Shown here in pieces: positions 23,509 through 44,032 of a stretch of 64,000 nucleotides of DNA. Every line of letters begins with the position of its first letter. Within the stretch, counting starts at the first letter, position 1. Source of the stretch: a virus; the IMG/VR virus record IMGVR_UViG_3300034082_004296, positions 32,001 to 96,000 of that record, one strand, 5' to 3'. The position numbers and the translations under genes are program-made. Under the pieces are notes generated by a model, which was given only the letters and a program-made list of their open reading frames with translations, searched no databases and was not told where the DNA came from.

Positions 23509-25485
23509 TTGTCAAATCTAAAATCAGCACAAACTAACACTAACGATTGGGTACTAATCGTTGAAAATGTAGGTGAAAAACTTCAAGTAAGGGATTCATC
23601 TACGACTGGCACAGTCCTCGAAGGAGTATGTGCGGTATTCGGTCAGATGAATAACAATCGCCGAGTATACGAAAAAACGGAATACTTACCTCACCTTACC
23701 TATCTTCAAGAAAAGATTAATAAGCGTCAGTTAGTAGGAACGGTTGACCACCCTCAACATTTCGAACCAAAATTAAGCGAAGCTTCACACATTATTGAAG
23801 GCTTAACATATGACGGTGGAGATAAAGTATACATTAAAGTAAGACTCCTAGAAAACACTCCACATGGTAAATTAGCGAAAGCATTACTTGACGGAGGAGT
23901 TCAGTTATCAGTTTCTTCAAGAGCAGCTGGACAGGTAAGTGAGAGTGGTTATGTAAAATTACAGCGAATCTTTACCTATGACTTAGTAGGAGAACCTGGA
24001 TTTACTGATGCAATTCTACGTAAAACAGTTAGTGAATCACTAAAGAATGACTTTTCAATGATTACTGAGAGTTATAACTCGATGAAGGAAAACTCTTTTA
24101 TTCATAAGTCTGGACTAATGGATATTTCAGAAAATTTAAACTTTGCAGATAATTTTAAAGTCTATAAGATAAATAAATTAGAAAATGGTTCAGGAACACA
24201 GTTCCGAGGAACTTTGCAAGAACAAAAAAATAACAACACAATGGCCGAGTTTGTAACAAAAGAACAAATGGACAAATATTCAGAAGTTCTTAAAACACAA
24301 TTCAATGGAATTAAAAAAGAACTTAAAAATCACAAGTCTGTTTTGGAGTCTGCTCAATCAGGTAATGGATCAACTAATTCAGAATTAGTTGGATTCGTAA
24401 ATTATTTAGCAGAATCTCTAGAAGGAGTGATTAATTTCGCTGATTATCTTTCTCACAAACTAAACGAGTCAGTTAAATATACTGAGCACGTTTCTGAGAC
24501 AGTTAACAACTCTATCGATTATTCTTCTTATTTAGGAGAAAAATTGAACCAGTCAGTTAACTATCAAGATTACCTTTCAACTAAGGTGAACGAGTCAATC
24601 AACTACGCAGAGTATATTAAAGAAAATGTAAACAATTCTATTAAGTACCAAAATTATTTGGCTGAAGAACTAGATAAAGGATTACAGTATGTTGAATACG
24701 TTGCTGAAGGAACTAATCGTTCTATTGAGTTCGGAGAATATCTTTCAGAAAATATTAACTTAAACAGAGATTACTCTCAATATGTTGCTGAAAAATTAGG
24801 ACAGTCTATTGGATACTCTGAATATTTAGCTGAATCTCTAGGAGACGGAAACCATGTAGGTACTCGAAATGTTTTAGGTAAAGTTTCTAAATTAAATGAA
24901 TCTAATTCAATTGACAATCTAATCTCTAAGGTTGATCAAGTGATTACTGAAGTAAACGATAAGTCATCTAAAGCAGTTCTTGAGAGCAAGTATCCTTTCT
25001 TAAAGGTTATGGGAGAAGCAAACAAGAAAGTTTTCTTTAACTTACAATCAGACACTAAACAAGCTATCGTTGAAGCTCTTAACGGATCAGTTTGGTTTAA
25101 CGAAAACGACATCGTTGGTATCATGGAAGCTGTTGTAAATCACAAAGAACAAAATATTCCTACCTATATCAGATTCATGCCAGTAGAATACAAAGCTACT
25201 TGGAACGAAATGAATGAAAACGAAAAAAGTAAAGTTCACGCAAAAGCACAGCTTTATACAGTAAACACTCCATACCAAGTTAAAGCATTTTGGGATGATA
25301 TTGATATGAGAGGAATCAATGAAAGAATTGAAACACAAAAATATAACACAAAAATAACGCAACAACTCAACGAGAGCCAAAGTACAGAAGGCTTAATACC
25401 TGTAAATCAGGTTGTTGAGATGCAGAGAGGTTACTCTCAAGGTTACTTAGAAACAATGTTGAGAAACGCTGGTTCTAGATTGTAA
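23509..25485 (+). CDS. Prohead protease (gp21-like) fused to scaffold/core protein
   Basis: NNNRRVY, GTVDHP (His), SVSSRAAG (Ser), TYDLVGEPGF; long coiled-coil C-terminus; TTG start after ATAAATA 23483-23489. Confidence 0.9.
   Translation: MSNLKSAQTNTNDWVLIVENVGEKLQVRDSSTTGTVLEGVCAVFGQMNNNRRVYEKTEYLPHLTYLQEKINKRQLVGTVDHPQHFEPKLSEASHIIEGLTYDGGDKVYIKVRLLENTPHGKLAKALLDGGVQLSVSSRAAGQVSESGYVKLQRIFTYDLVGEPGFTDAILRKTVSESLKNDFSMITESYNSMKENSFIHKSGLMDISENLNFADNFKVYKINKLENGSGTQFRGTLQEQKNNNTMAEFVTKEQMDKYSEVLKTQFNGIKKELKNHKSVLESAQSGNGSTNSELVGFVNYLAESLEGVINFADYLSHKLNESVKYTEHVSETVNNSIDYSSYLGEKLNQSVNYQDYLSTKVNESINYAEYIKENVNNSIKYQNYLAEELDKGLQYVEYVAEGTNRSIEFGEYLSENINLNRDYSQYVAEKLGQSIGYSEYLAESLGDGNHVGTRNVLGKVSKLNESNSIDNLISKVDQVITEVNDKSSKAVLESKYPFLKVMGEANKKVFFNLQSDTKQAIVEALNGSVWFNENDIVGIMEAVVNHKEQNIPTYIRFMPVEYKATWNEMNENEKSKVHAKAQLYTVNTPYQVKAFWDDIDMRGINERIETQKYNTKITQQLNESQSTEGLIPVNQVVEMQRGYSQGYLETMLRNAGSRL
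24241..25485 (+). CDS. Probable nested in-frame scaffold protein (internal start MAEFVTKE)
   Basis: Internal GATAAATA at 24168-24175 and A-rich AAAAAAATAACAACACA directly before in-frame ATG 24241. Confidence 0.55.
   Translation: MAEFVTKEQMDKYSEVLKTQFNGIKKELKNHKSVLESAQSGNGSTNSELVGFVNYLAESLEGVINFADYLSHKLNESVKYTEHVSETVNNSIDYSSYLGEKLNQSVNYQDYLSTKVNESINYAEYIKENVNNSIKYQNYLAEELDKGLQYVEYVAEGTNRSIEFGEYLSENINLNRDYSQYVAEKLGQSIGYSEYLAESLGDGNHVGTRNVLGKVSKLNESNSIDNLISKVDQVITEVNDKSSKAVLESKYPFLKVMGEANKKVFFNLQSDTKQAIVEALNGSVWFNENDIVGIMEAVVNHKEQNIPTYIRFMPVEYKATWNEMNENEKSKVHAKAQLYTVNTPYQVKAFWDDIDMRGINERIETQKYNTKITQQLNESQSTEGLIPVNQVVEMQRGYSQGYLETMLRNAGSRL
24403..24843 (+). repeat. About 11 copies of a 14-aa (42-nt) coiled-coil repeat in the scaffold
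   Basis: YLAESLEGVINFAD/YLSHKLNESVKYTE/HVSETVNNSIDYSS/YLGEKLNQSVNYQD/YLSTKVNESINYAE/... Confidence 0.85.
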
Positions 25486-25513: not shown

Positions 25514-27172
25514 ATGGCACGTACTAAAATTTTCAAACGTTCAAGCGACAATCGCTTAGCGAACACATGGCAGCCGATTTTAGAAGGTTACGGTGCTGAT
25601 GTTGCTAAGACTCCATGGTTAGCTGAGTATGCTCACAACCACGCGATCTTTGATAACACTACACCTATCTTCGAGCAAACGACTCCAGGTGTATTTTTCC
25701 AAACTCCAGGTTCTCTTGGTGGTTTTATGGGGAACCCATCAGCTCCAACATCAGCAATGACTCCGTTCACTGCAGGTGCTAAGAATTCTTTCTCAGCTGA
25801 TGCTAACGGTTCAGGTGATAAATTTCCATCACTTTTACCAGTTGCTATTCAAGTAGCAGCAAAAACTATTGGTTTTGACCTAGTTCCAGTTATCCCTATG
25901 GATTCTCCAGTTGGATTCCTTCCTTACTTGGATTATCTATATGCTGGCGGTAGAACTTCTACTGGTAACTTCGATCCTTATTTGGTTAAGTTAGAAGGTT
26001 TAACATCAGATAGCTTCGCTGTTGCTCTTACTCCTGGTGATGCAGTAGCTATTGTTCCTGCTGGTGATTTCACAGCAGAGTTCGTTGGTTATTCACGTGT
26101 AGACGGTACAATAATCATCAAGATCACAGACGACGGTTCAGTTGACGGCGCTACTACTGCTGCTGCAGAGTATGTTGGTGCAGCGATTACTATCGATGGT
26201 AACGCCCTTGTTGTTGGTGCTGCATGTACTGGAGTTTCTCTAGTTTCTGCATTAGAAAACCACATCTCTGGTTTCACTTCAGTATCTGATGCAGATTACG
26301 CAACTACTCCATTCAATGGTTCTTACCTTCCTTCTACAGGATCTGTACCTGGATCAATGAAGAGAGAAGCTGGTGAAAACTCTAAATTCCGTCAAATGGG
26401 ATTAAGAATGTTCACTAAGTTTGTTGAGGCTGAGACTGACCAAGTTTCTATCTCTGCAACTGTTGAGCAGATCCAAGACTTGAACAGAGTTTGGAACTAT
26501 GACGTTATCTCTATGTTAGAGAACGTAGCGGTTAATGACTTGGCTCAATCAATCAACAAAAGATTAGTTGACCGTGTATTACAATTAGCTGATGTTCACT
26601 CTACAGAAGTTAACTTAGTTGAAGGTGGTGGTGGTGTTATTACTGACCTTGACTTGACTGCTGGTGGATTTGATAACACTTCTACATTACAAAGAAGATT
26701 AGTTACTAAAGTTCTTGAAATGGCAAACTTGATTTACCATAGAGGACGTTTCGGAGCTGGTACTTTCTTAGTAACTAATGGACGTGTTGCTTCTGCAATG
26801 GCTGATGTTGCTGGTTACTCAATCGCGCAAGTTCCAACTGATATGGGTGGAGTTGCAGGTAACCTTTACCCAGCTGGTAAAGTTTATGGAGTACAAGTTT
26901 ACGTTGATCCTAACATGGCTTGGGGAGACTCAAGAATCATGATTGGTCGTAAAGGTGCTGACGAAGAGCCAGGTGTTAAATTCATGCCATATATCATGGC
27001 TGAATCTCTTCAGACTATTTCTGAAGGTACATTCTCTCCAAAAATCGGTATGAAATCAAGATACGCGATTACTGAAGCTGGATGGCATCCTGAAACTCAG
27101 TACATTAATATTAATGTTACTGGAGCTGCTCTTGGAGTTCTTACAGGTTCAAATGTACTAGTAGGTATCTAA
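25514..27172 (+). CDS. Major capsid protein (gp23-like)
   Basis: DLVPVIPMDSPVG, TVEQIQDL, INKRLV, FMPYI, FSPKIGMKSRYA; strongly biased codons. Confidence 0.95.
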   Translation: MARTKIFKRSSDNRLANTWQPILEGYGADVAKTPWLAEYAHNHAIFDNTTPIFEQTTPGVFFQTPGSLGGFMGNPSAPTSAMTPFTAGAKNSFSADANGSGDKFPSLLPVAIQVAAKTIGFDLVPVIPMDSPVGFLPYLDYLYAGGRTSTGNFDPYLVKLEGLTSDSFAVALTPGDAVAIVPAGDFTAEFVGYSRVDGTIIIKITDDGSVDGATTAAAEYVGAAITIDGNALVVGAACTGVSLVSALENHISGFTSVSDADYATTPFNGSYLPSTGSVPGSMKREAGENSKFRQMGLRMFTKFVEAETDQVSISATVEQIQDLNRVWNYDVISMLENVAVNDLAQSINKRLVDRVLQLADVHSTEVNLVEGGGGVITDLDLTAGGFDNTSTLQRRLVTKVLEMANLIYHRGRFGAGTFLVTNGRVASAMADVAGYSIAQVPTDMGGVAGNLYPAGKVYGVQVYVDPNMAWGDSRIMIGRKGADEEPGVKFMPYIMAESLQTISEGTFSPKIGMKSRYAITEAGWHPETQYININVTGAALGVLTGSNVLVGI

Positions 27173-36143: not shown

Positions 36144-36204
36144 ATCATTAAGATACTAAAAAAAAATTGACATATTAAAATAAATAACTAAAAAAGTATC
36201 TAAC

Positions 36205-38172
36205 ATGTCATATTTGTTAAATTATAAAAATTGGAGAGCACTATATGAAAGCCAAACTAATATTTTTGAAGATGGAGAAGACCCATACGGAGGAGTTGGT
36301 ATGATTGATGATACCAAAATCAAAGATAAAGGCACAGTTGATCCATTTGCAGACATGCCAAAAGAGGGCAAGAAAAGATTAGAGTATTTAGTAAATAAAG
36401 CAGGAGACCTAGATTCACAGGCGATAAAAAAGGCAGGAGCAGCGCCAGCAACTTCACTTCTACCCTACGATGCAATAACTGACTGGATGATTACTGCAGG
36501 TAAGCCTACTACAAGGAGCGATGGAAAAGGAGGATATAAAGATTTTTCACCAGAATGGAAGAAAAGATTTAAAGATAGAGAGCCTTCCATGAAATTAGAA
36601 GACTGTATTCAATGTATGCAGTATTGGAATGGAATAATTGATACGACTAAAACAAAAAAAGAAACTATTGAAATAAACGGTAAACCGTATGATGTTGCAA
36701 ATTATGACACTGCTCGAGTAATTAGACAATTGGATCAATTAAGTAATCTCAAAAAAGTTAAATCTTTAGTAGAAGAGGCATGGAAGGCTAAAGGCATTAT
36801 ATATTTTAATACTGGCTCGCCTTCAGAATATGAGTTTGAAGGAACTAAGTATTCTATTGAGAAAGACAAACAGGTAACATTTGACCCAAATTTAATCGTT
36901 GAAAAGAGTAAGATTTTACTAGAAAAAGCGAAAAAAACATTTGTAAACACTGGAAAAACCAGAAGAAATTCAAAGACTGATATGCTTTCTCCAAACCCCA
37001 ATTCAGATAATGTATGGTTTGATACAGGAGAGGGAGGAAAATATTATTCAAAGAAATCTAGAGATCAAACTGGAAGCTTTTGGCTATGGTATCAAATAAT
37101 ATCGGACGATGCTCAATTTCAAAAGTTATTAGCTAGATTCGATGATCCAACTTATGTGAGGACAGTATTCACAAAAATGACGGAGCAGGATAAGATAAAC
37201 ATAATAAAGGGTATTTCGGACGCTGCACAGAAGAAATTTGAGAAAGGATCAGTCGGAGCAATGGAAGGGATCTATGGCGCTACTTCCATCGTGTGGTGGC
37301 CGGTTGAAGCTAAAGAGACGATGCCAAAAACAACGGTCCTTAAACCAGCTAGTCCAGGAATTGACGTTGAATATGAAAATGAATGGGACTTTTCTTGGCC
37401 GTATGCTAAAGAAGGAGGAGTAGGAAAAGAACTTGCAATGACCTACTTTAAGAGTGATTCAGCAATAATACAAGATGGCAAGGACAAAGAGATAGACAAT
37501 GCAGTCAAGCAAATCATGGCTGAAATTAAGAGCAAAAATGGTACTCTTAAATCATTAAAGTATAGAGTAGTAGCATCGACGAGTGACGAACCTTCTAAAT
37601 ATGCAAGCCCTAATAAAGTAGCCGCAAAATACGATATTGCAAATAATCAACCTTTAGTTAGAGACCGTGCTAAGGTAATCGAAACTGCCCTAACTGCTGC
37701 GATCACTGCGAACGGAATTGATCCGACCCTGGTCACTAAAGACGGCGAAGACCTTACTCCTAATAATATTCTAGACGATGGAAGTGCAAAATACCAAGAG
37801 AAAAAATGGATGCGGCTTGATCATAAGGACCCTAGAGCAACGGCTGCTACTGATGCTGAATATAAAGCACTATTCGCTAAACCTAAACATTCAGGGCTTC
37901 TATTTAATATAGTATATACAACCATTGAAAAGGAAAAGAGTGAACCTACTCCTGAAGAAACGACCGTATCTGATTATGAGGTAGTAGGAGAATGGCTATT
38001 CGAGATCAAGTGGGCAGGCGGAGGAAGCTACAAGAAAAAGAGAAGAAGAACTCACACTAGAAGACCGATGAGGGGAATCCCTTGGGATAAATTGTTTCCG
38101 CCTCTTCCTGCAGGTGGAGGATGGAGCGTCGAAGACTTATGTGACGCATATGGTAGATCAGGACCAGGATAG
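36205..38172 (+). CDS. Putative head-packaged protein with OmpA-like C-terminal-type domain
   Basis: ATAAATA 36180-36186; leader MSYLLNYKNWRALYE; YFKSDSAII...VVASTS...NQPLVRDRAKVI fits the OmpA_C pattern. Confidence 0.55.
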   Translation: MSYLLNYKNWRALYESQTNIFEDGEDPYGGVGMIDDTKIKDKGTVDPFADMPKEGKKRLEYLVNKAGDLDSQAIKKAGAAPATSLLPYDAITDWMITAGKPTTRSDGKGGYKDFSPEWKKRFKDREPSMKLEDCIQCMQYWNGIIDTTKTKKETIEINGKPYDVANYDTARVIRQLDQLSNLKKVKSLVEEAWKAKGIIYFNTGSPSEYEFEGTKYSIEKDKQVTFDPNLIVEKSKILLEKAKKTFVNTGKTRRNSKTDMLSPNPNSDNVWFDTGEGGKYYSKKSRDQTGSFWLWYQIISDDAQFQKLLARFDDPTYVRTVFTKMTEQDKINIIKGISDAAQKKFEKGSVGAMEGIYGATSIVWWPVEAKETMPKTTVLKPASPGIDVEYENEWDFSWPYAKEGGVGKELAMTYFKSDSAIIQDGKDKEIDNAVKQIMAEIKSKNGTLKSLKYRVVASTSDEPSKYASPNKVAAKYDIANNQPLVRDRAKVIETALTAAITANGIDPTLVTKDGEDLTPNNILDDGSAKYQEKKWMRLDHKDPRATAATDAEYKALFAKPKHSGLLFNIVYTTIEKEKSEPTPEETTVSDYEVVGEWLFEIKWAGGGSYKKKRRRTHTRRPMRGIPWDKLFPPLPAGGGWSVEDLCDAYGRSGPG

Positions 38173-38176
38173 AGGA

Positions 38177-38779
38177 TCACTCTATTCTGTTAGTTAATAA
38201 TAAAGTGGAAGATATTCGATATCTTCCATTTTTGTTTACATAGACCTTTTGATATACTCCACAAAAGGTAGCCTCCTTCTTTAATAGCTTTGAGTTATGA
38301 CCTGGAGACTCGATCCAATAATTTAGGACACACTGTGCAGCTAACTTAGGATCGACTATTTTGGATCCAATATTTTTAAGCCAAAGATCGCCAACTTTTT
38401 GTTTTGTAGGATCCTTAAATACCATTGGTCCAGCATTAAGACAGTTCTCAGCAATCATGCCGCCTGCTCCTAATTTTACGCCAAATCGTTCAACTCTTGT
38501 TTCAGGAGAGACTAGATTTTCAATAAGATGTAGTGAATCATAATTTCGCTCAAAGTGGCCTCCTTCATCGTATATAGACAGGTATTCGCAATGGTGTTCA
38601 CAAGCACGAGTCGCTTTAGAGTCTAGCTTAAGTGGATTGAGCCCATTTTTTTGACGATATTCATTTATGGCATCAAGTAGAAGAGTTGAGAATTCAGCCT
38701 CAGTAGTTAAAAGGTTTTTAGGAACTTGAGAAAAAGTGATCGTAGAGATCAATAGAAGGGTTAATGTTATTAATTTCAT
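38177..38779 (-). CDS. Secreted CAP (SCP/Tpx-1/Ag5/PR-1) domain protein
   Basis: Start revised to MKLITLTLLLISTITFSQ; INEYRQKNGLNPL, HCEYL, GH, AENC, WIESPGHNSKLL. Confidence 0.85.
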   Translation of the reverse strand: MKLITLTLLLISTITFSQVPKNLLTTEAEFSTLLLDAINEYRQKNGLNPLKLDSKATRACEHHCEYLSIYDEGGHFERNYDSLHLIENLVSPETRVERFGVKLGAGGMIAENCLNAGPMVFKDPTKQKVGDLWLKNIGSKIVDPKLAAQCVLNYWIESPGHNSKLLKKEATFCGVYQKVYVNKNGRYRISSTLLLTNRIE

Positions 38780-38865
38780 GGCTCTTACATTTACTGTGGA
38801 TATAGTTATAATACAATAAAAAGAGTCGGTTTTAAAAGATAAATAACTAAAAAACTTATTTAAAA

Positions 38866-40410
38866 ATGGGTGGTTATTTATTAAATTATAACAAGTGGAG
38901 AGCTCTATATGAGTCAGCTCAACTAAATGAGGCAATTGAGATACCTGGATTTAATCTTAAACCGGTAGAAAAAGGAAATAAGCTAGTTTCTAGAGTTTCG
39001 TATCCATCACTTGGAATTAATCCAAAATACGATAATGAGCTAAATTCAATCATGACTAAAACAGTCGGTAAGGAGACAATTCCTAAGTTATTTGTAGTAA
39101 ATGGTAGTGAAGTTGATTCTCAGGCTGAATATCGAAAAATATTTACTGCGCTAGTTTATGGAGTGATCCAATATTTTGAAGATGATACATTAAAGGATAA
39201 GATCGATGATATTGCTCCACAACTTAAATTCACAACAACGATTTCAGGTAAAGTACAATTGTATGGTTCAAGTAGTGGAAGGATTAGTACACAAGGACAA
39301 ATTGTGGAACCGAATACTGGTGGGGCAGTCTATATTTCAAACACAGCTGACACTAAAGAGTCATCAGTAATCGGGATATGTAAATATATCAATGGATTTA
39401 ATTTACAGAATTGGATGACAGGTAATTTCCTACAGATAGATCCAACGAAGATTCTTGATCAAAACAATGTAACTGATTTAACTGGAGCGATGAGAGAGGC
39501 ATATGTTGAAGAACGAGGATTCTTACGATTAGTCAGTCCAGCAAGTGCAAGCATTACTGCTGGAGCAAGGGGTACTGAGACTGAAACTGTTCAAGGTGCA
39601 CAGGCGCAAACTGGTAATGCAGAGATTGCATTTACTGCTGGAAAATCAGATATTGATGATAAAGGAGTTAAAGTTGATGCAAATCACCCTAAAGTAAAAG
39701 AGATTGGTGACAAGATCATAGGGTATTTAGGAAACAATGGTGTAATTGATTCAATGACGTTAACCTCATCTGCAAGTCCAGAATATGGATCGATCCAAAA
39801 CGTTGCAGGCTGGGAAAAATCTTATCCTAAGGGGACTACTGGAACAGCTGATCCTGGTGCAGGAGCGGATGACGCTGGTAAAAACATGAAGCTTGCATAC
39901 GATCGAGGAGTCGTATTTAGTAATGCGTTATACGCTTATTTAGGAGGACATGTAAAACAAAATGCAATTGCCGTTTCTTGGAAGATCTCAACTGATGCTC
40001 CAGGAGGAGGAAAGAATATCACTTACTCAGTTGCTACTAAAAGTGAATCTCCACAAACAATCACAAAAACGACTTACCAAGGAGCAAAAGTATCTGTCAA
40101 AAATGAAGATAACTCAATCGTAGTCTATAAGATTACGTATGATGCGTCAGCAATTGCTAAAAATAAAGATGGACTTTTCACAAAAGAACGAATTGATTAT
40201 AATAAATTAAAAGTAGGTGATAAGATCATAGTATACGCTAAGGACATGAAGACTAAACTTGGAAAAGATGAAGATGAACCTGTCACAGTAAGTAAGGTTG
40301 AAGATAATAATGTTTACGTAAATTATAAAGAAAACACCGATATCTTGATACCTAAAGATAGATACATTAAACAAGTAGGAAAAGCTGAAAAGCAAGAAGC
40401 TGAAATCTAA
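38866..40410 (+). CDS. Second putative head-packaged protein with OmpA-like domain
   Basis: ATAAATA 38839-38845; leader MGGYLLNYNKWRALYE; FTAGKSDI...LTSSASPE...NMKLAYDRG. Confidence 0.55.
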   Translation: MGGYLLNYNKWRALYESAQLNEAIEIPGFNLKPVEKGNKLVSRVSYPSLGINPKYDNELNSIMTKTVGKETIPKLFVVNGSEVDSQAEYRKIFTALVYGVIQYFEDDTLKDKIDDIAPQLKFTTTISGKVQLYGSSSGRISTQGQIVEPNTGGAVYISNTADTKESSVIGICKYINGFNLQNWMTGNFLQIDPTKILDQNNVTDLTGAMREAYVEERGFLRLVSPASASITAGARGTETETVQGAQAQTGNAEIAFTAGKSDIDDKGVKVDANHPKVKEIGDKIIGYLGNNGVIDSMTLTSSASPEYGSIQNVAGWEKSYPKGTTGTADPGAGADDAGKNMKLAYDRGVVFSNALYAYLGGHVKQNAIAVSWKISTDAPGGGKNITYSVATKSESPQTITKTTYQGAKVSVKNEDNSIVVYKITYDASAIAKNKDGLFTKERIDYNKLKVGDKIIVYAKDMKTKLGKDEDEPVTVSKVEDNNVYVNYKENTDILIPKDRYIKQVGKAEKQEAEI

Positions 40411-40431
40411 TCTTGACTTTAGATATTTGAT

Positions 40432-40458
40432 AAGGGAGTCTAACGACTCCCTTTTTTT
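40432..40458 (+). terminator. Intrinsic terminator
   Basis: AAGGGAGTC-TAAC-GACTCCCTTTTTTT. Confidence 0.85.
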
Positions 40459-40991
40459 GGCATTATATATACGTACCCATTAAATGTGGTCTTGCTCTTA
40501 TCTAGTGAATGAAATGTAGCATCAAACTTGATAGATTTATTTTTACGATCAATCAATATGATCGAAACAATAGTAGCTGCTTCGTCGTTGGGTCGAGAGA
40601 TAGCTGCCTCATGGGTAGAAGAGTGAATCCAACCCTGAACAGCTTTCTGTGCAAGCGCTTCAAGATCGATCTCACCGCGATCACTAATGATATTTGTAAA
40701 AAATGAACCTGACGTTTCGTATCTATATAAACACTCAGCATTGCTCCAATAACCTAGGCTATCTGAATGTCTCTGCATGGGCCGATTAAAATTTCCATAT
40801 GCTACTCTGGTACAAAACTTTCGCATCAGGGAGTCCTCAAATGCCATAAATGGAGAGAGGCTTTGTGTGATTCTATACTCATTAATCTTTTTCCAGATCA
40901 AACTATCAAGCTTAGTAGATTCGATTCTTTCTACTTGTGAAATCGAAGAGAATGAAAGTAATGCAAAAAATATTATTGCAATTGTTTTCAT
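40440..40991 (-). CDS. Second secreted CAP-domain protein
   Basis: Signal peptide MKTIAIIFFALLSFSSISQ; INEYRITQSL, H, AECL, WIHSSTH. Confidence 0.75.
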   Translation of the reverse strand: MKTIAIIFFALLSFSSISQVERIESTKLDSLIWKKINEYRITQSLSPFMAFEDSLMRKFCTRVAYGNFNRPMQRHSDSLGYWSNAECLYRYETSGSFFTNIISDRGEIDLEALAQKAVQGWIHSSTHEAAISRPNDEAATIVSIILIDRKNKSIKFDATFHSLDKSKTTFNGYVYIMPKKGSR

Positions 40992-41072: not shown

Positions 41073-41306
41073 ATGGCAAATCCAGTTATGAACTACAACC
41101 AGTTTATGTCAGCATTCAAAAAAGCTGAAGCGGGATACCGTGGAAAAGCTAATGTTGCGGCTAACGATAGATCAGGTTCTATGAAGATCAATCAAGGTTT
41201 AGTTGAAGGTCCAGTTAAAGGAAAAGGAACTCCTCAACTTGATAAGTATACTAAACAATACATGACTACTGCAAAGAACAAGAGTGTAGTAGGTAAGAAG
41301 AAGTAA
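41073..41306 (+). CDS. Small basic late protein
   Basis: ATAAATA 41048-41054; MANPVMNYNQFM leader. Confidence 0.65.
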   Translation: MANPVMNYNQFMSAFKKAEAGYRGKANVAANDRSGSMKINQGLVEGPVKGKGTPQLDKYTKQYMTTAKNKSVVGKKK

Positions 41307-41326
41307 TCAATAAAAATCTAGGACCA

Positions 41327-41584
41327 ATGAATAGAGCTATCATGAGATTTGAGCAATATGCTCTACTTGAAAAGAAGGGCGACCTTAAGAAGCTAGTAGG
41401 TAAGGACGAGGACGAAGAGCTTACGATAAATGATGCCAAGAAGATTGGGGTCAAGGTTGCTAACATGGAAGGAGAGGACAAGAAGAAATACGTTGGTATC
41501 ATCAACTTTTTAGGGGCTTCATGTAACATCTATAACGAGCTTTGGAAGAATTATAAACGAACGAGAGATCGTAAAAAAGACTAA
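41327..41584 (+). CDS. Small late protein
   Basis: MNRAIMRFEQYALLE leader. Confidence 0.65.
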   Translation: MNRAIMRFEQYALLEKKGDLKKLVGKDEDEELTINDAKKIGVKVANMEGEDKKKYVGIINFLGASCNIYNELWKNYKRTRDRKKD

Positions 41585-42717
41585 TGGATAAAGTATTTGA
41601 AAAGGCGTATTCTGATGAGGCTAGCTCAAAGGATGGAGGTTTCATCTTTCAAGCAATCCTAAACTATGACCTGTCCTGGTCAATAGTCAATGGCGAGACT
41701 GCACTCGATCAAAAAAATATCCAAGGTTGGCTTAAGCAAGTAGATGTTTTTCCAGATATGCGGTTTGAAGAGGGCCATGCCACTCTTACCTATGTTATCT
41801 TAAGTGAAGTAAATCTACTTAAAAGAAAGTTTGAGCTTGCGAGCGAGGCAATCAAGAGATTACTTAATCCAGATTATGCTCGAGAAATGGACGGTTTACC
41901 TGCTGAAGTGACACCGGAAGAAGAGACACCAAAACCGGTCGAGACCGACATAACTGACGACGATTGGAACAATCTCTTACCATCTGGTCCAAATCCACCA
42001 TTGGGATTACCTGAGCCACAAAAGAGAATTGGTCAAGGCCAAGTAGCTTTGCCTTCGGGCCCATCTGCTCCACTAGGTCTTCCGCCAGCAACTTCTGAAT
42101 CAAGAGTAAATGAGGTTCTTTTTACTACAAAGTTGACTTCTGCTCAAATCAAGGCGATTAATGACAAGTACTTTAGCAACACTCACTATGAGGTAAGGTT
42201 CACAGTAGATCGAATGGTCCTACGTGAGGTCTCAACCAGTGGACTTGATACGGGTTCTCCCAATGTGACACTTAAACTTTCTACAGGTATGGTGGACACG
42301 CTTGATGGAAAAGCAATCAATAGCTGGGACGGATTTAAGGTAAAGGTATCGGGTAAAAACACTCTAATTAATAATGAGTCGCTGTTGATAGACAACACGA
42401 CTGAACCCAAGATCTCAGAAATAATGGTATATGACCCTATTGAAAACGTGAATGAACTTATCTTTAGGACTATCCTACCTTCTTTAGTATTGGAATTTAA
42501 GGGAGACCGTGTACAAATAGATAACTATTCAAACCGCTCTTCACAAGTATCTATACGATCTAACATTGATTTTGAAAACTTATTTAATATTGAGGAGGCA
42601 CCCGCCTCTGAGATAGTAGACACAGAAGAGGGAGAGGAACCTGAAGAGGAGAATACTGAAGAAACTCAGGAACCAACTACACCCGAACAAAATATTGCTC
42701 CAAAGCAAAATAAATAA
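41584..42717 (+). CDS. Hypothetical virion-associated protein with Pro-rich linker
   Basis: Duplicated LPSGP..PLGLP motif; LFE/VNE-type sites; acidic tail. Confidence 0.65.
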   Translation: MDKVFEKAYSDEASSKDGGFIFQAILNYDLSWSIVNGETALDQKNIQGWLKQVDVFPDMRFEEGHATLTYVILSEVNLLKRKFELASEAIKRLLNPDYAREMDGLPAEVTPEEETPKPVETDITDDDWNNLLPSGPNPPLGLPEPQKRIGQGQVALPSGPSAPLGLPPATSESRVNEVLFTTKLTSAQIKAINDKYFSNTHYEVRFTVDRMVLREVSTSGLDTGSPNVTLKLSTGMVDTLDGKAINSWDGFKVKVSGKNTLINNESLLIDNTTEPKISEIMVYDPIENVNELIFRTILPSLVLEFKGDRVQIDNYSNRSSQVSIRSNIDFENLFNIEEAPASEIVDTEEGEEPEEENTEETQEPTTPEQNIAPKQNK

Positions 42718-42736
42718 CTAAAATAATCGATACACA

Positions 42737-43312
42737 ATGGCAGGTTTACCATATTGGACCAACTCAGTCGCAGCTCGAGAATACTACGAACCGATCTATA
42801 AGAATCAGTTTGAGGTGATCTTGAACCCACCGGCAGTAATCTCTGGTAGCAATGTAGCTCTTTTAGTGGAGCACGTGACCGAGATTTCAGGTCTGCCTGA
42901 AATAAATTCTAACGGGACTCTAGTTGAACAGTCTTACAAGTTCGCTAAAAGATCCTTTGCTGGAGGAATCCCAGACACTACAACTGCTGACTTAACTATT
43001 AAATTTACAGTCAACTTAAATGAAGAAAATGACGCATATGTCTATAATATCCTTAGGGCATGGAACGATATCGTTTACAATCCTCAAACGGGTAGTCAAG
43101 GACTAAAAAGAGACTATGTAGGTTCAATGTCAGTACACGTTGCAAACAAGACTGGTGAGATCTTTAGAGAATGGAACTTTCCAGTGATCATTCCAAATGA
43201 TAAACTGACTGAACTCTCTTTAAATTACACTGAAAATGGAATCTATGACGTAACGATGAAATATAGAGCAGACTACTGGGTTGAAACTAGAGTAGGTCAG
43301 ATTAACGTATAA
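42737..43312 (+). CDS. Tail tube protein (gp19-like)
   Basis: EPIYKNQFEV, RSFAG, LRAWNDIVYNPQTG..GLKRDY, LSLNY, ADYW. Confidence 0.85.
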   Translation: MAGLPYWTNSVAAREYYEPIYKNQFEVILNPPAVISGSNVALLVEHVTEISGLPEINSNGTLVEQSYKFAKRSFAGGIPDTTTADLTIKFTVNLNEENDAYVYNILRAWNDIVYNPQTGSQGLKRDYVGSMSVHVANKTGEIFREWNFPVIIPNDKLTELSLNYTENGIYDVTMKYRADYWVETRVGQINV

Positions 43313-43327
43313 AAAATCGAGATAAAA

Positions 43328-44032
43328 ATGGAAATGTTTAACACACATCGTCGAGATATCCTAAATTTCGATAACTATATGGATCTTAAGAAACCAGGAT
43401 TCGGAGGACCTAAATCTGCAATCGAATTACGGGATGCTCGAGGTAATATGAATGATCGCGATCCTAAACTTAAAGGATTTAGACGAACTGTTGAGAGAGA
43501 CCCTGCTTTTTCTCACCCTGTATACGACCCTACGTACAAGGCAATGACTGGCGATCTTGTTTATCGACAAGAAAAAAAGAAGCCGTTTACGTATGATGAT
43601 CGAATCACTGGAATTCCAGTTGTAGAGATCGAACCAGTAGAAGAGGGAAGAGCCTATTCTTCATTTACCCGATTCATTAATGAAGAAGTAGAAGATGAGT
43701 TAGAAGACGAATTGGATGCTGAATTAGAAGATGAGTTAGAAGATGAGTTAGAAGACAATCAATATGCTGAATTAGAAAATGATTATGAAGAGAGTGACTC
43801 AGATGATTGGAACGAAGATGAATATCGTCAGGAGGCAACTGCTTTCAATAATACTATGTCAGACCTGCGTAGCATAGAGGCTATGCTTCGAGGATTTGAA
43901 AACGGAGAAAACTTTGATGATGAAGAGGAAGACTTTGGTACAAACCCATTAGAAGACGAGGAGAGTCCGTTTGGAGAGATACCCGACTGGGTAAAGGAGC
44001 TTCAAGCTCCAGAAGATTCTGAAGGATATTAA
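43328..44032 (+). CDS. Acidic putative prohead core protein
   Basis: Internal FTRFINE motif then an (E/D)-rich region with ELED repeats. Confidence 0.55.
   Translation: MEMFNTHRRDILNFDNYMDLKKPGFGGPKSAIELRDARGNMNDRDPKLKGFRRTVERDPAFSHPVYDPTYKAMTGDLVYRQEKKKPFTYDDRITGIPVVEIEPVEEGRAYSSFTRFINEEVEDELEDELDAELEDELEDELEDNQYAELENDYEESDSDDWNEDEYRQEATAFNNTMSDLRSIEAMLRGFENGENFDDEEEDFGTNPLEDEESPFGEIPDWVKELQAPEDSEGY
43691..43756 (+). repeat. 12-nt coding tandem repeat (GAAGATGAGTTA; EDEL)
   Basis: EDELEDELDAELEDELEDELED. Confidence 0.85.

Follow-up and report, generated by a model that had tools for sequence, protein, structure and literature searches.

Convergent cassettes of leader-tagged OmpA-like genes and secreted CAP-like partner genes in a T4-superfamily phage: a candidate exclusion system

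Effectors of the type VI secretion system (T6SS) that act in the periplasm are encoded with their immunity proteins as one-to-one adjacent pairs, in which the signal peptide of the second gene fits the compartment of the effector. Phage T4 encodes Imm, a small membrane protein of 83 amino acids (aa). Imm attaches to the tape measure protein once this has been ejected (bioRxiv 10.64898/2026.03.06.709160), and a second T4 protein, Spackle, inhibits gp5, the tail lysozyme that a superinfecting phage brings in (PMC7677548). The internal proteins of T4 have only a ten-residue capsid-targeting sequence (CTS) in common (PMC3012670); residues 4 and 7 of the CTS direct packaging, and gp21 cuts after L/I-x-E (PMC9026906). 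Here, we describe a locus that resembles each of these systems in part. It lies in a 64,000-nucleotide stretch of DNA (the window), bases 32001-96000 of IMG/VR record IMGVR_UViG_3300034082_004296, a 176,210-base viral contig that is ~70% complete. Window positions 36205-40991 are filled by two convergent units, A1/C1 and then A2/C2. The + strand genes A1 and A2 (cargo genes) encode leader-tagged proteins with a predicted OmpA-like domain, and the − strand genes C1 and C2 (partner genes) encode CAP-like proteins predicted to be secreted. Gene topology, the fidelity of each cargo type to its own partner type in related phages, strict alternation of the two, and dedicated regulation make functional coupling of cargo and partner, of whatever kind, the best reading of the locus, with a probability that we place at about one half. 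The features of the two units are as follows, in window coordinates:

36179..36187, + strand, late-type promoter motif AATAAATAA, which ends 17 nt before the A1 start codon
36205-38172, + strand, A1, 655 aa
37360..38016, + strand, predicted OmpA/MotB-like peptidoglycan-binding-type domain of A1, aa 386-604 (from Foldseek, VIA and the A1-A2 profile alignment)
38177-38779, − strand, C1, 200 aa (start ATG 38779, stop at 38177)
38801..38816, − strand, partner-gene upstream element TTGTATTATAACTATA, 22 nt before the C1 start codon
38838..38846, + strand, late-type promoter motif GATAAATAA, upstream of A2
38866-40410, + strand, A2, 514 aa
39577..40044, + strand, predicted OmpA/MotB/Pal-like domain of A2, aa 238-393
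40432..40453, + strand, hairpin and T-run terminator of A2, which overlaps the C2 stop codon
40440-40991, − strand, C2, 183 aa
41011..41026, − strand, partner-gene upstream element TTGTATTATAGCTATA, which contains the palindrome TATAGCTATA, 20 nt before the C2 start

The gene layout matches a first-pass annotation of this DNA, which had described a +/− two-gene unit that occurs twice, with near-identical leaders in front of strongly diverged + strand proteins. The leaders of A1 and A2 are the same at 12/14 residues, and BLAST detects no similarity between the two proteins beyond the leader. C1 and C2 show only weak N-terminal similarity by BLAST. A longer, 252-aa open reading frame for C1 that begins at a TTG codon was rejected as an over-extension; the homologues all begin at the MK... 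of the signal peptide. The intergenic gap is 4 nt between A1 and C1 and 29 nt between A2 and C2. The A1 and C1 stop codons (window 38170-38179) thus stand 4 nt apart with no terminator between them, and convergent transcription must collide there; in the related loci L006, L011, and L013, the two convergent genes overlap by 4 nt. Because no terminator separates the genes, late transcription of A1 would run antisense through C1, and one may speculate that such read-through serves as a temporal switch.

The linkage between cargo and partner was examined in relatives of the window. In ten of ten related neighborhoods read, each cargo type is found with its own partner type, down to 24%/38% identity and also at different genome sites, and no swapped combination occurs among the ten. 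The combinations are distributed as follows:

A1-type cargo with a convergent C1-type CAP gene: window, L003/L004/L008/L009, L005, L006/L007/L010, L011, L012, L013
Distant A1-type cargo with a C1-type CAP gene: L016 (cargo 24.5% identical, partner 38%)
A2-type cargo with a C2-type gene: window, L005, L013, L014, L015, L016
Third OmpA-like cargo family with its own secreted ~145-aa non-CAP partner: L006, L011, L012, L015

The A1-C1 pair is thus present in 8 neighborhoods, A2-C2 in 6, and the pair of the third family in 4. The proposal in the first-pass annotation had been set beforehand to fall if an OmpA-like fold were absent or if the two gene types did not co-occur in relatives; the fold was found, and the two gene types co-occur with the type fidelity just described. 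The units A1-C1 and A2-C2 are independent: L014 has A2-C2 at a site adjacent to Fpg without A1-C1, and L003 has A1-C1 among quite different neighbors. Records for the A1 protein of L003 and the A2 protein of L014 each give a contig of 248,064 bases as the source, and these two loci probably belong to one phage lineage. L015 contains four cargo-partner pairs in a row in strict alternation, one of whose partners is a membrane-type protein of 78 aa. In the genome of the window itself, 4 of the 11 genes with a signal peptide are convergent partners of leader-tagged genes. Two of these four pairs are C1 and C2 with their cargo; the remaining two are tandem cassettes at L017:1123-3298 (G000:C1:16122-18297, outside the window), where tagged proteins of 195 aa and 188 aa are each convergent with a secreted protein of 147 aa or 139 aa. 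The L017 partners are 28% identical, the L017 cargo proteins are alike only over the first ~39 residues, and none of the four cassette proteins has a Pfam match.

The third leader-tagged cargo family is recognized by Pfam OmpA directly in L006 (E 5e-9, 36.8 bits), and its L015 member gives a match below the cut-off (E 1e-4, 22.6 bits). A2 is not a simple orthologue of the L006 Pfam-OmpA protein. The partners of the third family (142-154 aa) show detectable homology between distant copies and no detectable kinship with C2 (hhalign 0.9%); the partner folds therefore differ, which does not count against the model.

The assignment of A1 and A2 to the OmpA-like group comes from structure and profile comparison. 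A search among 5.8 billion proteins returned 17 A1 homologues at 42-57% identity, which gives a family alignment of 18 members; A2 has 36 homologues. Neither protein has a match in Pfam or PHROGs, and PF00691 is absent at E <= 1 from A1, A2, 18 + 34 family members, and the rest of the genome. The AlphaFold model of A1 is of moderate quality (predicted local distance difference test (pLDDT) 66.6), and Foldseek places OmpA-like domains, including those of PorE, AbOmpA, OprF, MotB, and Pal, in 34 of 35 listed rows among the first 49 ranks, at weak E values of 4e-3 to 0.2. VIA-align gives the same region of A1 (residues ~387-577) a Z score of up to 8.5 with a root-mean-square deviation (rmsd) of 3.9 over 128 aa, tied with an unrelated AIR-synthetase domain. 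The A2 model is better (pLDDT 78.5). In an unbiased comparison of A2 residues 238-393 with 48,161 PDB representatives, the top 33 matches are all OmpA/MotB/Pal-type, the best being 9uu2 (Z 10.1, rmsd 2.5 Å, 105/109 residues). The A1 and A2 family profiles also align with each other (A2 257-426 with A1 412-601; hhalign 90%, E 1.8e-6). From the folds, this alignment, and the Pfam OmpA match in the third cargo family, we conclude that A1 and A2 both carry a diverged, homologous OmpA-like domain, so that the OmpA-like segment noticed in the first-pass annotation is borne out in both + strand proteins by structure comparison, though it lies below Pfam detection. PDB sequence searches with the A1 and A2 family profiles gave no meaningful match.

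In A1, the leader (aa 1-15, ending in L-Y-E) is followed by a variable, mostly helical N-terminal half (aa ~50-385), the OmpA-like domain with an insertion (aa ~386-604), and a basic tail (aa 605-655, isoelectric point 10.6), whose strongly basic stretch precedes a conserved C-terminal DLCDAYG. In A2, the leader (aa 1-16) is followed by an N-terminal domain modeled with high confidence (aa ~30-235), the OmpA-like domain (aa 238-393), and a small C-terminal beta-barrel (aa ~440-510). ESM Atlas feature searches with the N-terminal parts of both proteins gave matches at noise level only. The C-terminal barrel of A2 (window 40183-40395) weakly resembles Tudor/SH3-like structures (Z 5-5.8), and its Pfam match to Phage_ProQ_C_like (E 0.036) is below threshold. 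Across 18 A1 sequences, the invariant residues are E15, STSDEP 458-463, N481, L484, R488, and A489, and the block STSDEP...NN..LV..RA resembles the OmpA motif TD...N..LS..RA. As judged from this motif alignment only, A1 appears to keep Asp461 and Arg488 of the pair that holds diaminopimelate in OmpA, and it is likely, on these residues, to bind peptidoglycan. The invariant block of A2 is SSASPE...N340..L343...R347, in which, by motif alignment only, the Arg is kept and the Asp position is Ser/Glu (an ASPE variant). By structure comparison, A1 and A2 have the same fold as the OmpA/MotB/Pal domains of PF00691, with Asp and Arg apparently kept in A1 and Asn/Leu/Arg in A2. They differ from these domains in lying below Pfam detection, in their large insertions, and in having no signal peptide and a capsid-targeting-like leader in front.

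C1 belongs to the CAP/SCP family (PF00188, 42.8 bits against a cut-off of 21.1, E 1e-10), and its nearest solved relative is Borrelia BB0689 (PDB 4D53). C2 itself has no match in Pfam. Its family, collected by exhaustive profile search, has 144 representatives; 12 of the 40 scanned match PF00188 (best E 1.4e-12), and C2 aligns with the C1 family over 145 columns (hhalign 96%, E 4e-9). The tail-to-tail − strand genes, which had been called CAP genes from the start, are thus a CAP gene by Pfam (C1) and a diverged relative by profile comparison (C2). The signal peptides, aa 1-17 in C1 (cleavage TFS|Q) and aa 1-18 in C2 (cleavage SIS|Q), fit the n/h/c pattern, and the Gln at +1 (Q18 in C1) is invariant in both families. 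In Bacteroidetes, signal peptides are cleaved before Gln (the Q-rule; PMC5837995), and the "SQ" ending reported earlier for these Sec signals corresponds to this rule. Both proteins are predicted to be exported by Sec to the periplasm. C1 and C2 resemble bacterial CAP/SCP proteins (YkwD-like; Borrelia BB0689) in being small and secreted and in having a W-x-x-S-P-x-H motif, and they differ in being phage-encoded and coupled to a specific neighboring gene. We know of no established function for the bacterial members. A C2 homologue of 191 aa is found on a Flavobacteriia-type chromosome at L021:3247-4739 (GC 43%), with a signal that ends in FSQ. Its neighbors encode NAD kinase, PdxJ, MscS, and DnaG, and its operon codes for three more small proteins whose N-termini resemble those of exported proteins or lipoproteins.

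The two partner genes are preceded by a common 16-nt element, TTGTATTATARCTATA, of the form GTAT(T/A)ATA..TATA, which contains the palindrome given above. Within 80 nt upstream of genes, GTATTATA..TATA occurs 4 times in 176 kb, in front of exactly the four secreted partners. The same or a similar element precedes partner genes in relatives, and two partners in L016 have an identical 38-nt upstream stretch. Each cassette therefore has two conserved regulatory ends, the late motif plus leader at one and the partner element at the other. The first-pass annotation had assigned C1 a clear middle-type promoter; no T4 MotA-type box is present, and the shared element stands in its place. A sigma-70/T4-middle promoter reading of the region upstream of C1 was also discarded, as 25 consensus matches were obtained versus 17.5 +/- 4.2 in shuffles; the scan used E. 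coli rules, which are unlikely to apply to a Bacteroidota host.

The leaders that begin the cargo proteins are YLLNYKNWRALYES in A1 and YLLNYNKWRALYES in A2. Each has two aromatic residues three apart and then L-x-E (Y7..W10..L13-Y-E15 in A1; Y8..W11..L14-Y-E16 in A2), and the Glu at position 15 is conserved in 18/18 A1 homologues. The CTS of T4 has the sequence MKTYQEFIAE. Other late proteins of the phage carry a tighter tag, MLNFNQFINE, which resembles the T4 sequence because F4, F7, I8, and E10 occupy the same positions. Genome-wide, the tag pattern is found at 18/211 N-termini versus 1.2% of internal windows. As in T4 IPI, IPII, IPIII, and Alt (PMC3012670, PMC9026906), a short propeptide with two aromatics three apart and an L/I-x-E end is borne by proteins that evolve fast and otherwise have nothing in common, and the genome also encodes a gp21-type protease and a gp23-like capsid protein and has late promoter-like motifs. 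The known internal proteins of T4 differ from the putative cargo A1 and A2: their roles are cytoplasmic (anti-restriction, ADP-ribosylation), and they have neither a peptidoglycan-binding domain nor a dedicated secreted partner. The genes for capsid protein and protease lie in the window at these positions:

23509-25485, prohead protease (Peptidase_S77 E 1.4e-10, S80 E 1.9e-6)
25514-27172, gp23-like major head protein

From the T4-like leader, the enrichment of the tag at N-termini, the gp21-type protease, and the gp23-like capsid protein, we infer on good grounds that A1 and A2 would be loaded into the capsid and their leaders cleaved. The head targeting claimed in the first-pass annotation is accordingly upheld as far as the leader with its L-x-E end and the protease are concerned, and location in the virion is putative. 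The protease ORF is 658 aa long; S77/S80 match only its first ~200 residues, which are followed by a long C-terminal extension.

A Phage_lysozyme2 protein is leader-tagged as well. If the tag signifies packaging, some of the cargo would therefore act on the cell wall. The lysozyme (205 aa, PF18013 E 2e-22, leader MKHILNLQNWRKLNE) is encoded at L018:1399-2016 (G000:C1:11511-12128, outside the window), and the 459-aa protein that precedes it has a tag-like N-terminus, TFESFAIFE. Tag-like N-termini also occur in the products of the + strand genes that follow the cassettes (window 41073-44032): MANPVMNYNQFMSAF in a protein of 77 aa, MNRAIMRFEQYALLE in one of 85 aa, and ILNFDNYM in one of 234 aa. 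Unlike A1 and A2, the first two of these are highly conserved between relatives (82-95%). At L006:1553-5821, paralogous leader-tagged proteins of 711 aa and 698 aa are 35% identical, and both start with MKYISLFDDF. They match no family, and in the L006, L011, L012 lineage their genes immediately precede the OmpA cargo. Adjacent cargo genes within one genome can have leaders that are near-identical yet unlike those of other genomes: L013:801-2888 and L013:3592-5379 share 30 leader residues (MS.IL.FKDWFKVYESAGFKY.PGMAIFE), and the leaders of L015:2761-4392 and L015:5001-6551 are identical. This homogenization suggests gene conversion or recombination at the leader.

The motif NATAAATAA precedes A1, A2, the tail sheath gene, and other + strand genes by 15-22 nt. 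It occurs 68 times in the genome, and in 44 cases a gene starts no more than 40 nt downstream, usually at a distance of 15-22 nt. It resembles the T4 late promoter, TATAAATA, and can be read as a late promoter. The earlier description of the + strand genes as late-type agrees with the presence of this motif in front of both A1 and A2.

The source genome belongs to a contractile-tailed phage of the T4 superfamily, in which a tail sheath gene, the gp23-like major head protein, and the prohead protease are present. The nearest database relatives of the capsid protein are <=37% identical and include Prevotella Lak phages, Tenacibaculum phages, and cyanomyoviruses. The − strand genes around the cassettes encode a split topoisomerase II, a helicase, an Fpg/Nei glycosylase, dCMP deaminase, and thymidylate synthase, that is, functions in replication and nucleotide metabolism. 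The signal peptides follow the Bacteroidetes Q-rule, which points to a host among the Bacteroidota, probably of the Flavobacteriia; some C2-family members are binned in Flavobacteriia metagenome-assembled genomes. The relatives are an uncultured group of freshwater Bacteroidota phages. Among 50,697 phage records, none matches A1 or A2, and searches of IMG/VR and GenBank phages returned no or almost no close relatives; alignment-based scans of IMG/VR and metagenomes contributed three further loci only.

These features allow a mechanism to be proposed. The late cargo, with its T4-like capsid-targeting propeptide, would be loaded into the prohead core, and the gp21-type protease would cut it after the Glu of the leader. 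At infection, the cargo would be ejected, and its OmpA/MotB-like domain would act on or hold peptidoglycan in the periplasm during entry. The convergent partner gene, driven by its own upstream element, would give a Sec-exported protein that accumulates in the periplasm soon after infection and that binds or otherwise neutralizes cognate cargo from later-arriving virions of the same or a related phage. The envelope of the infected cell would thereby be protected and secondary entry blocked, as with Spackle and gp5 or Imm and the tape measure protein in T4. A cargo made in the cytoplasm and a periplasmic partner of the same phage can meet only if the cargo arrives from outside, which is to say at superinfection or with the cargo of the infecting particle itself. 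We regard the full chain, up to neutralization of incoming cargo, as tentative, with a likelihood somewhat short of even.

The proposed likeness to Spackle and gp5 is that an early Sec-exported periplasmic protein neutralizes a wall-active virion protein, protects the cell, and excludes kin. Spackle, however, is not a CAP protein, and its target is a lysozyme of the baseplate spike rather than a capsid-packaged OmpA-like protein. The T4 genes sp and 5 are also not adjacent, duplicated, or organized as a cassette, unlike the genes in the window, for which binding between cargo and partner is putative. With Imm, the likeness is that an envelope protein encoded by the phage prevents secondary infection by attaching to a protein that the incoming virion has ejected, and the 78-aa membrane-type partner in L015 is near Imm in size. 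Imm differs in having a tail component as its target, no linkage to that target, no CAP or OmpA folds, and no parallel pair family. The cassettes have in common with T6SS effector-immunity pairs that many unrelated families are built to one architecture, that pairs occur in arrays, and that evolution is fast. They are unlike T6SS pairs in that delivery would be by the virion, that the two genes are convergent and each has its own promoter instead of sharing a transcript, and that no toxic activity is identified in the phage cargo. In a broader version, many unrelated capsid-packaged cargoes injected into the periplasm and their cognate neutralizers, periplasmic or in the membrane and each under a dedicated promoter, would form a cassette-organized system resembling effector and immunity; infected cells would gain specific immunity to the entry machinery of kin phages, in kin-specific exclusion or inter-phage competition, and two-gene units would be shuffled between genomes. 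This version is conceivable but rather unlikely.

Several observations weigh against neutralization of cargo by its partner. Packaging, cleavage, periplasmic release, peptidoglycan binding, expression timing, physical interaction, and exclusion are all steps that we infer. The internal proteins of T4 are described as being ejected into the cytoplasm (PMC9026906), and no ligand is known that an OmpA-like domain delivered there would bind. The A1/A2 cargo has no recognizable catalytic or toxic domain. The leader-tagged lysozyme has a convergent neighbor (163 aa) without a signal peptide. All relatives belong to one phage lineage, and part of the synteny reflects shared ancestry. The C2-family protein of L021 (E 2e-38) is encoded in a Flavobacteriia chromosome amid housekeeping genes, and because this homologue lacks a cargo gene, the C2 fold has a cellular role independent of phage cargo, with a host origin or counterpart; the phage may have acquired its partner gene from a host locus of this kind.

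Rates of evolution add to these points. Between the window and L005, backbone genes are 92-97% identical, C2 89%, C1 86%, A2 71%, and A1 50%, so the cargo evolves much faster than the CAP partners. A1 is a mosaic whose variable N-terminal half does not track C1 (Spearman 0.09-0.26, and 0.09 for the hypervariable aa 146-285). The C-terminal half of A1 does track C1 (r up to 0.86), which physical adjacency explains equally well. Because the part of A1 that tracks C1 also adjoins it, the mirror-tree analysis is uninformative for binding. The "diversifying lock-and-key" suggested by the first-pass annotation fits poorly on the CAP side, where C1 and C2 are 86-89% identical to their closest relative versus 50-71% for A1 and A2; co-diversifying specificity is disfavored because the CAP partners are more conserved and changes in the hypervariable half of A1 are not mirrored in C1. 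Complex prediction with A1 (aa 17-655) and C1 (aa 19-200) gave 0.62, 0.00, and 0.01 in three runs against a mark of 0.32, without controls and from alignments of 18 rows for A1 and 16 rows for C1, and counts neither for nor against binding.

The strongest alternative is that the cassettes involve no mutual action. The secreted CAP-like and other partners would then be general early envelope modifiers derived from host periplasmic proteins, with possible roles in receptor masking, wall remodeling, or lysis timing, and the conserved, promoter-bearing flanks of a hyperplastic region would promote recombination in which two-gene blocks move as one. The shuffling of regulatory cassettes is known in T4-type phages, and both flanks here (late motif plus leader; partner element) could act as recombination sites, as the leaders homogenized within a genome (30 residues in L013, identical in L015) would also suggest. 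The cargo-free chromosomal C2 homologue and the slower evolution of the CAP partners point the same way. Free shuffling, however, would give swaps such as A1 with C2, and the ten neighborhoods have none. Three cargo families instead keep their own partner families across deep divergence, cargo and partner alternate strictly in up to four pairs in a row, and the upstream element is exclusive to partner genes. We therefore consider this explanation possible but on the unlikely side.

In a second alternative, the partner would serve as an antidote to cargo that the same phage has injected: the cargo would hold or open the wall at the entry site, and the partner, made minutes later, would release or inactivate it and let the envelope close again for the productive cycle, with exclusion as at most a side effect. 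The structural and linkage evidence is the same as for neutralization of incoming cargo, and a partner that is useful in every infection, not only at high multiplicity, fits the stronger conservation of the partners. On the other hand, the searches revealed no domain in A1 or A2 that would damage the wall, and a domain that only binds may need no antidote. We regard this account as improbable. Still less probable, by a little, is that A1 and A2 are not capsid cargo and that their leader serves another late function, with the wall reached at lysis (for example, to help endolysin action or to tether particles or debris) and the partners being unrelated lysis or envelope regulators: packaging is argued from motif analogy, mature A1 and A2 of 54-72 kDa are large next to the classical T4 internal proteins, and an OmpA-like domain suits a periplasm that a cytoplasmic late protein could reach after holin action, but the leader matches the T4 CTS spacing and ends in a protease motif with an invariant Glu, an S77 protease and a gp23-like capsid protein are present, and ~18 unrelated late proteins are tagged, like the diverse T4 internal proteins with only the CTS in common (PMC3012670).

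Coupling between cargo and partner, as the best reading, draws on components that are already known. The folds and the exclusion concept are familiar, and the first-pass view that the system was undescribed does not extend to exclusion itself, for which Spackle and Imm are precedents; the cassette organization does appear to be undescribed. Literature searches found no description of an OmpA-like domain behind a capsid-targeting tag, of CAP proteins coupled to a capsid-tagged OmpA-like protein, or of the general cassette architecture with a partner-specific regulatory element. New here are the per-type partner fidelity, the third OmpA cargo family with its non-CAP partner, and the element exclusive to four partners.

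Even without coupling, these phages now have a defined capsid-targeting tag of the T4 kind, a late promoter motif, and a regulatory element specific to partner genes. Should the coupling prove functional, it would mean that proteins packaged in the capsid can work in the periplasm as the phage enters, and that exclusion factors can be encoded beside their targets as exchangeable two-gene cassettes. One could then predict exclusion specificities from sequence, as cannot be done for T4 Sp or Imm. The cassettes would provide the first functional context for bacterial and phage CAP-domain proteins, and their three OmpA-like cargo families and several partner folds would offer natural cognate and non-cognate pairs for tests of kin recognition among phages.

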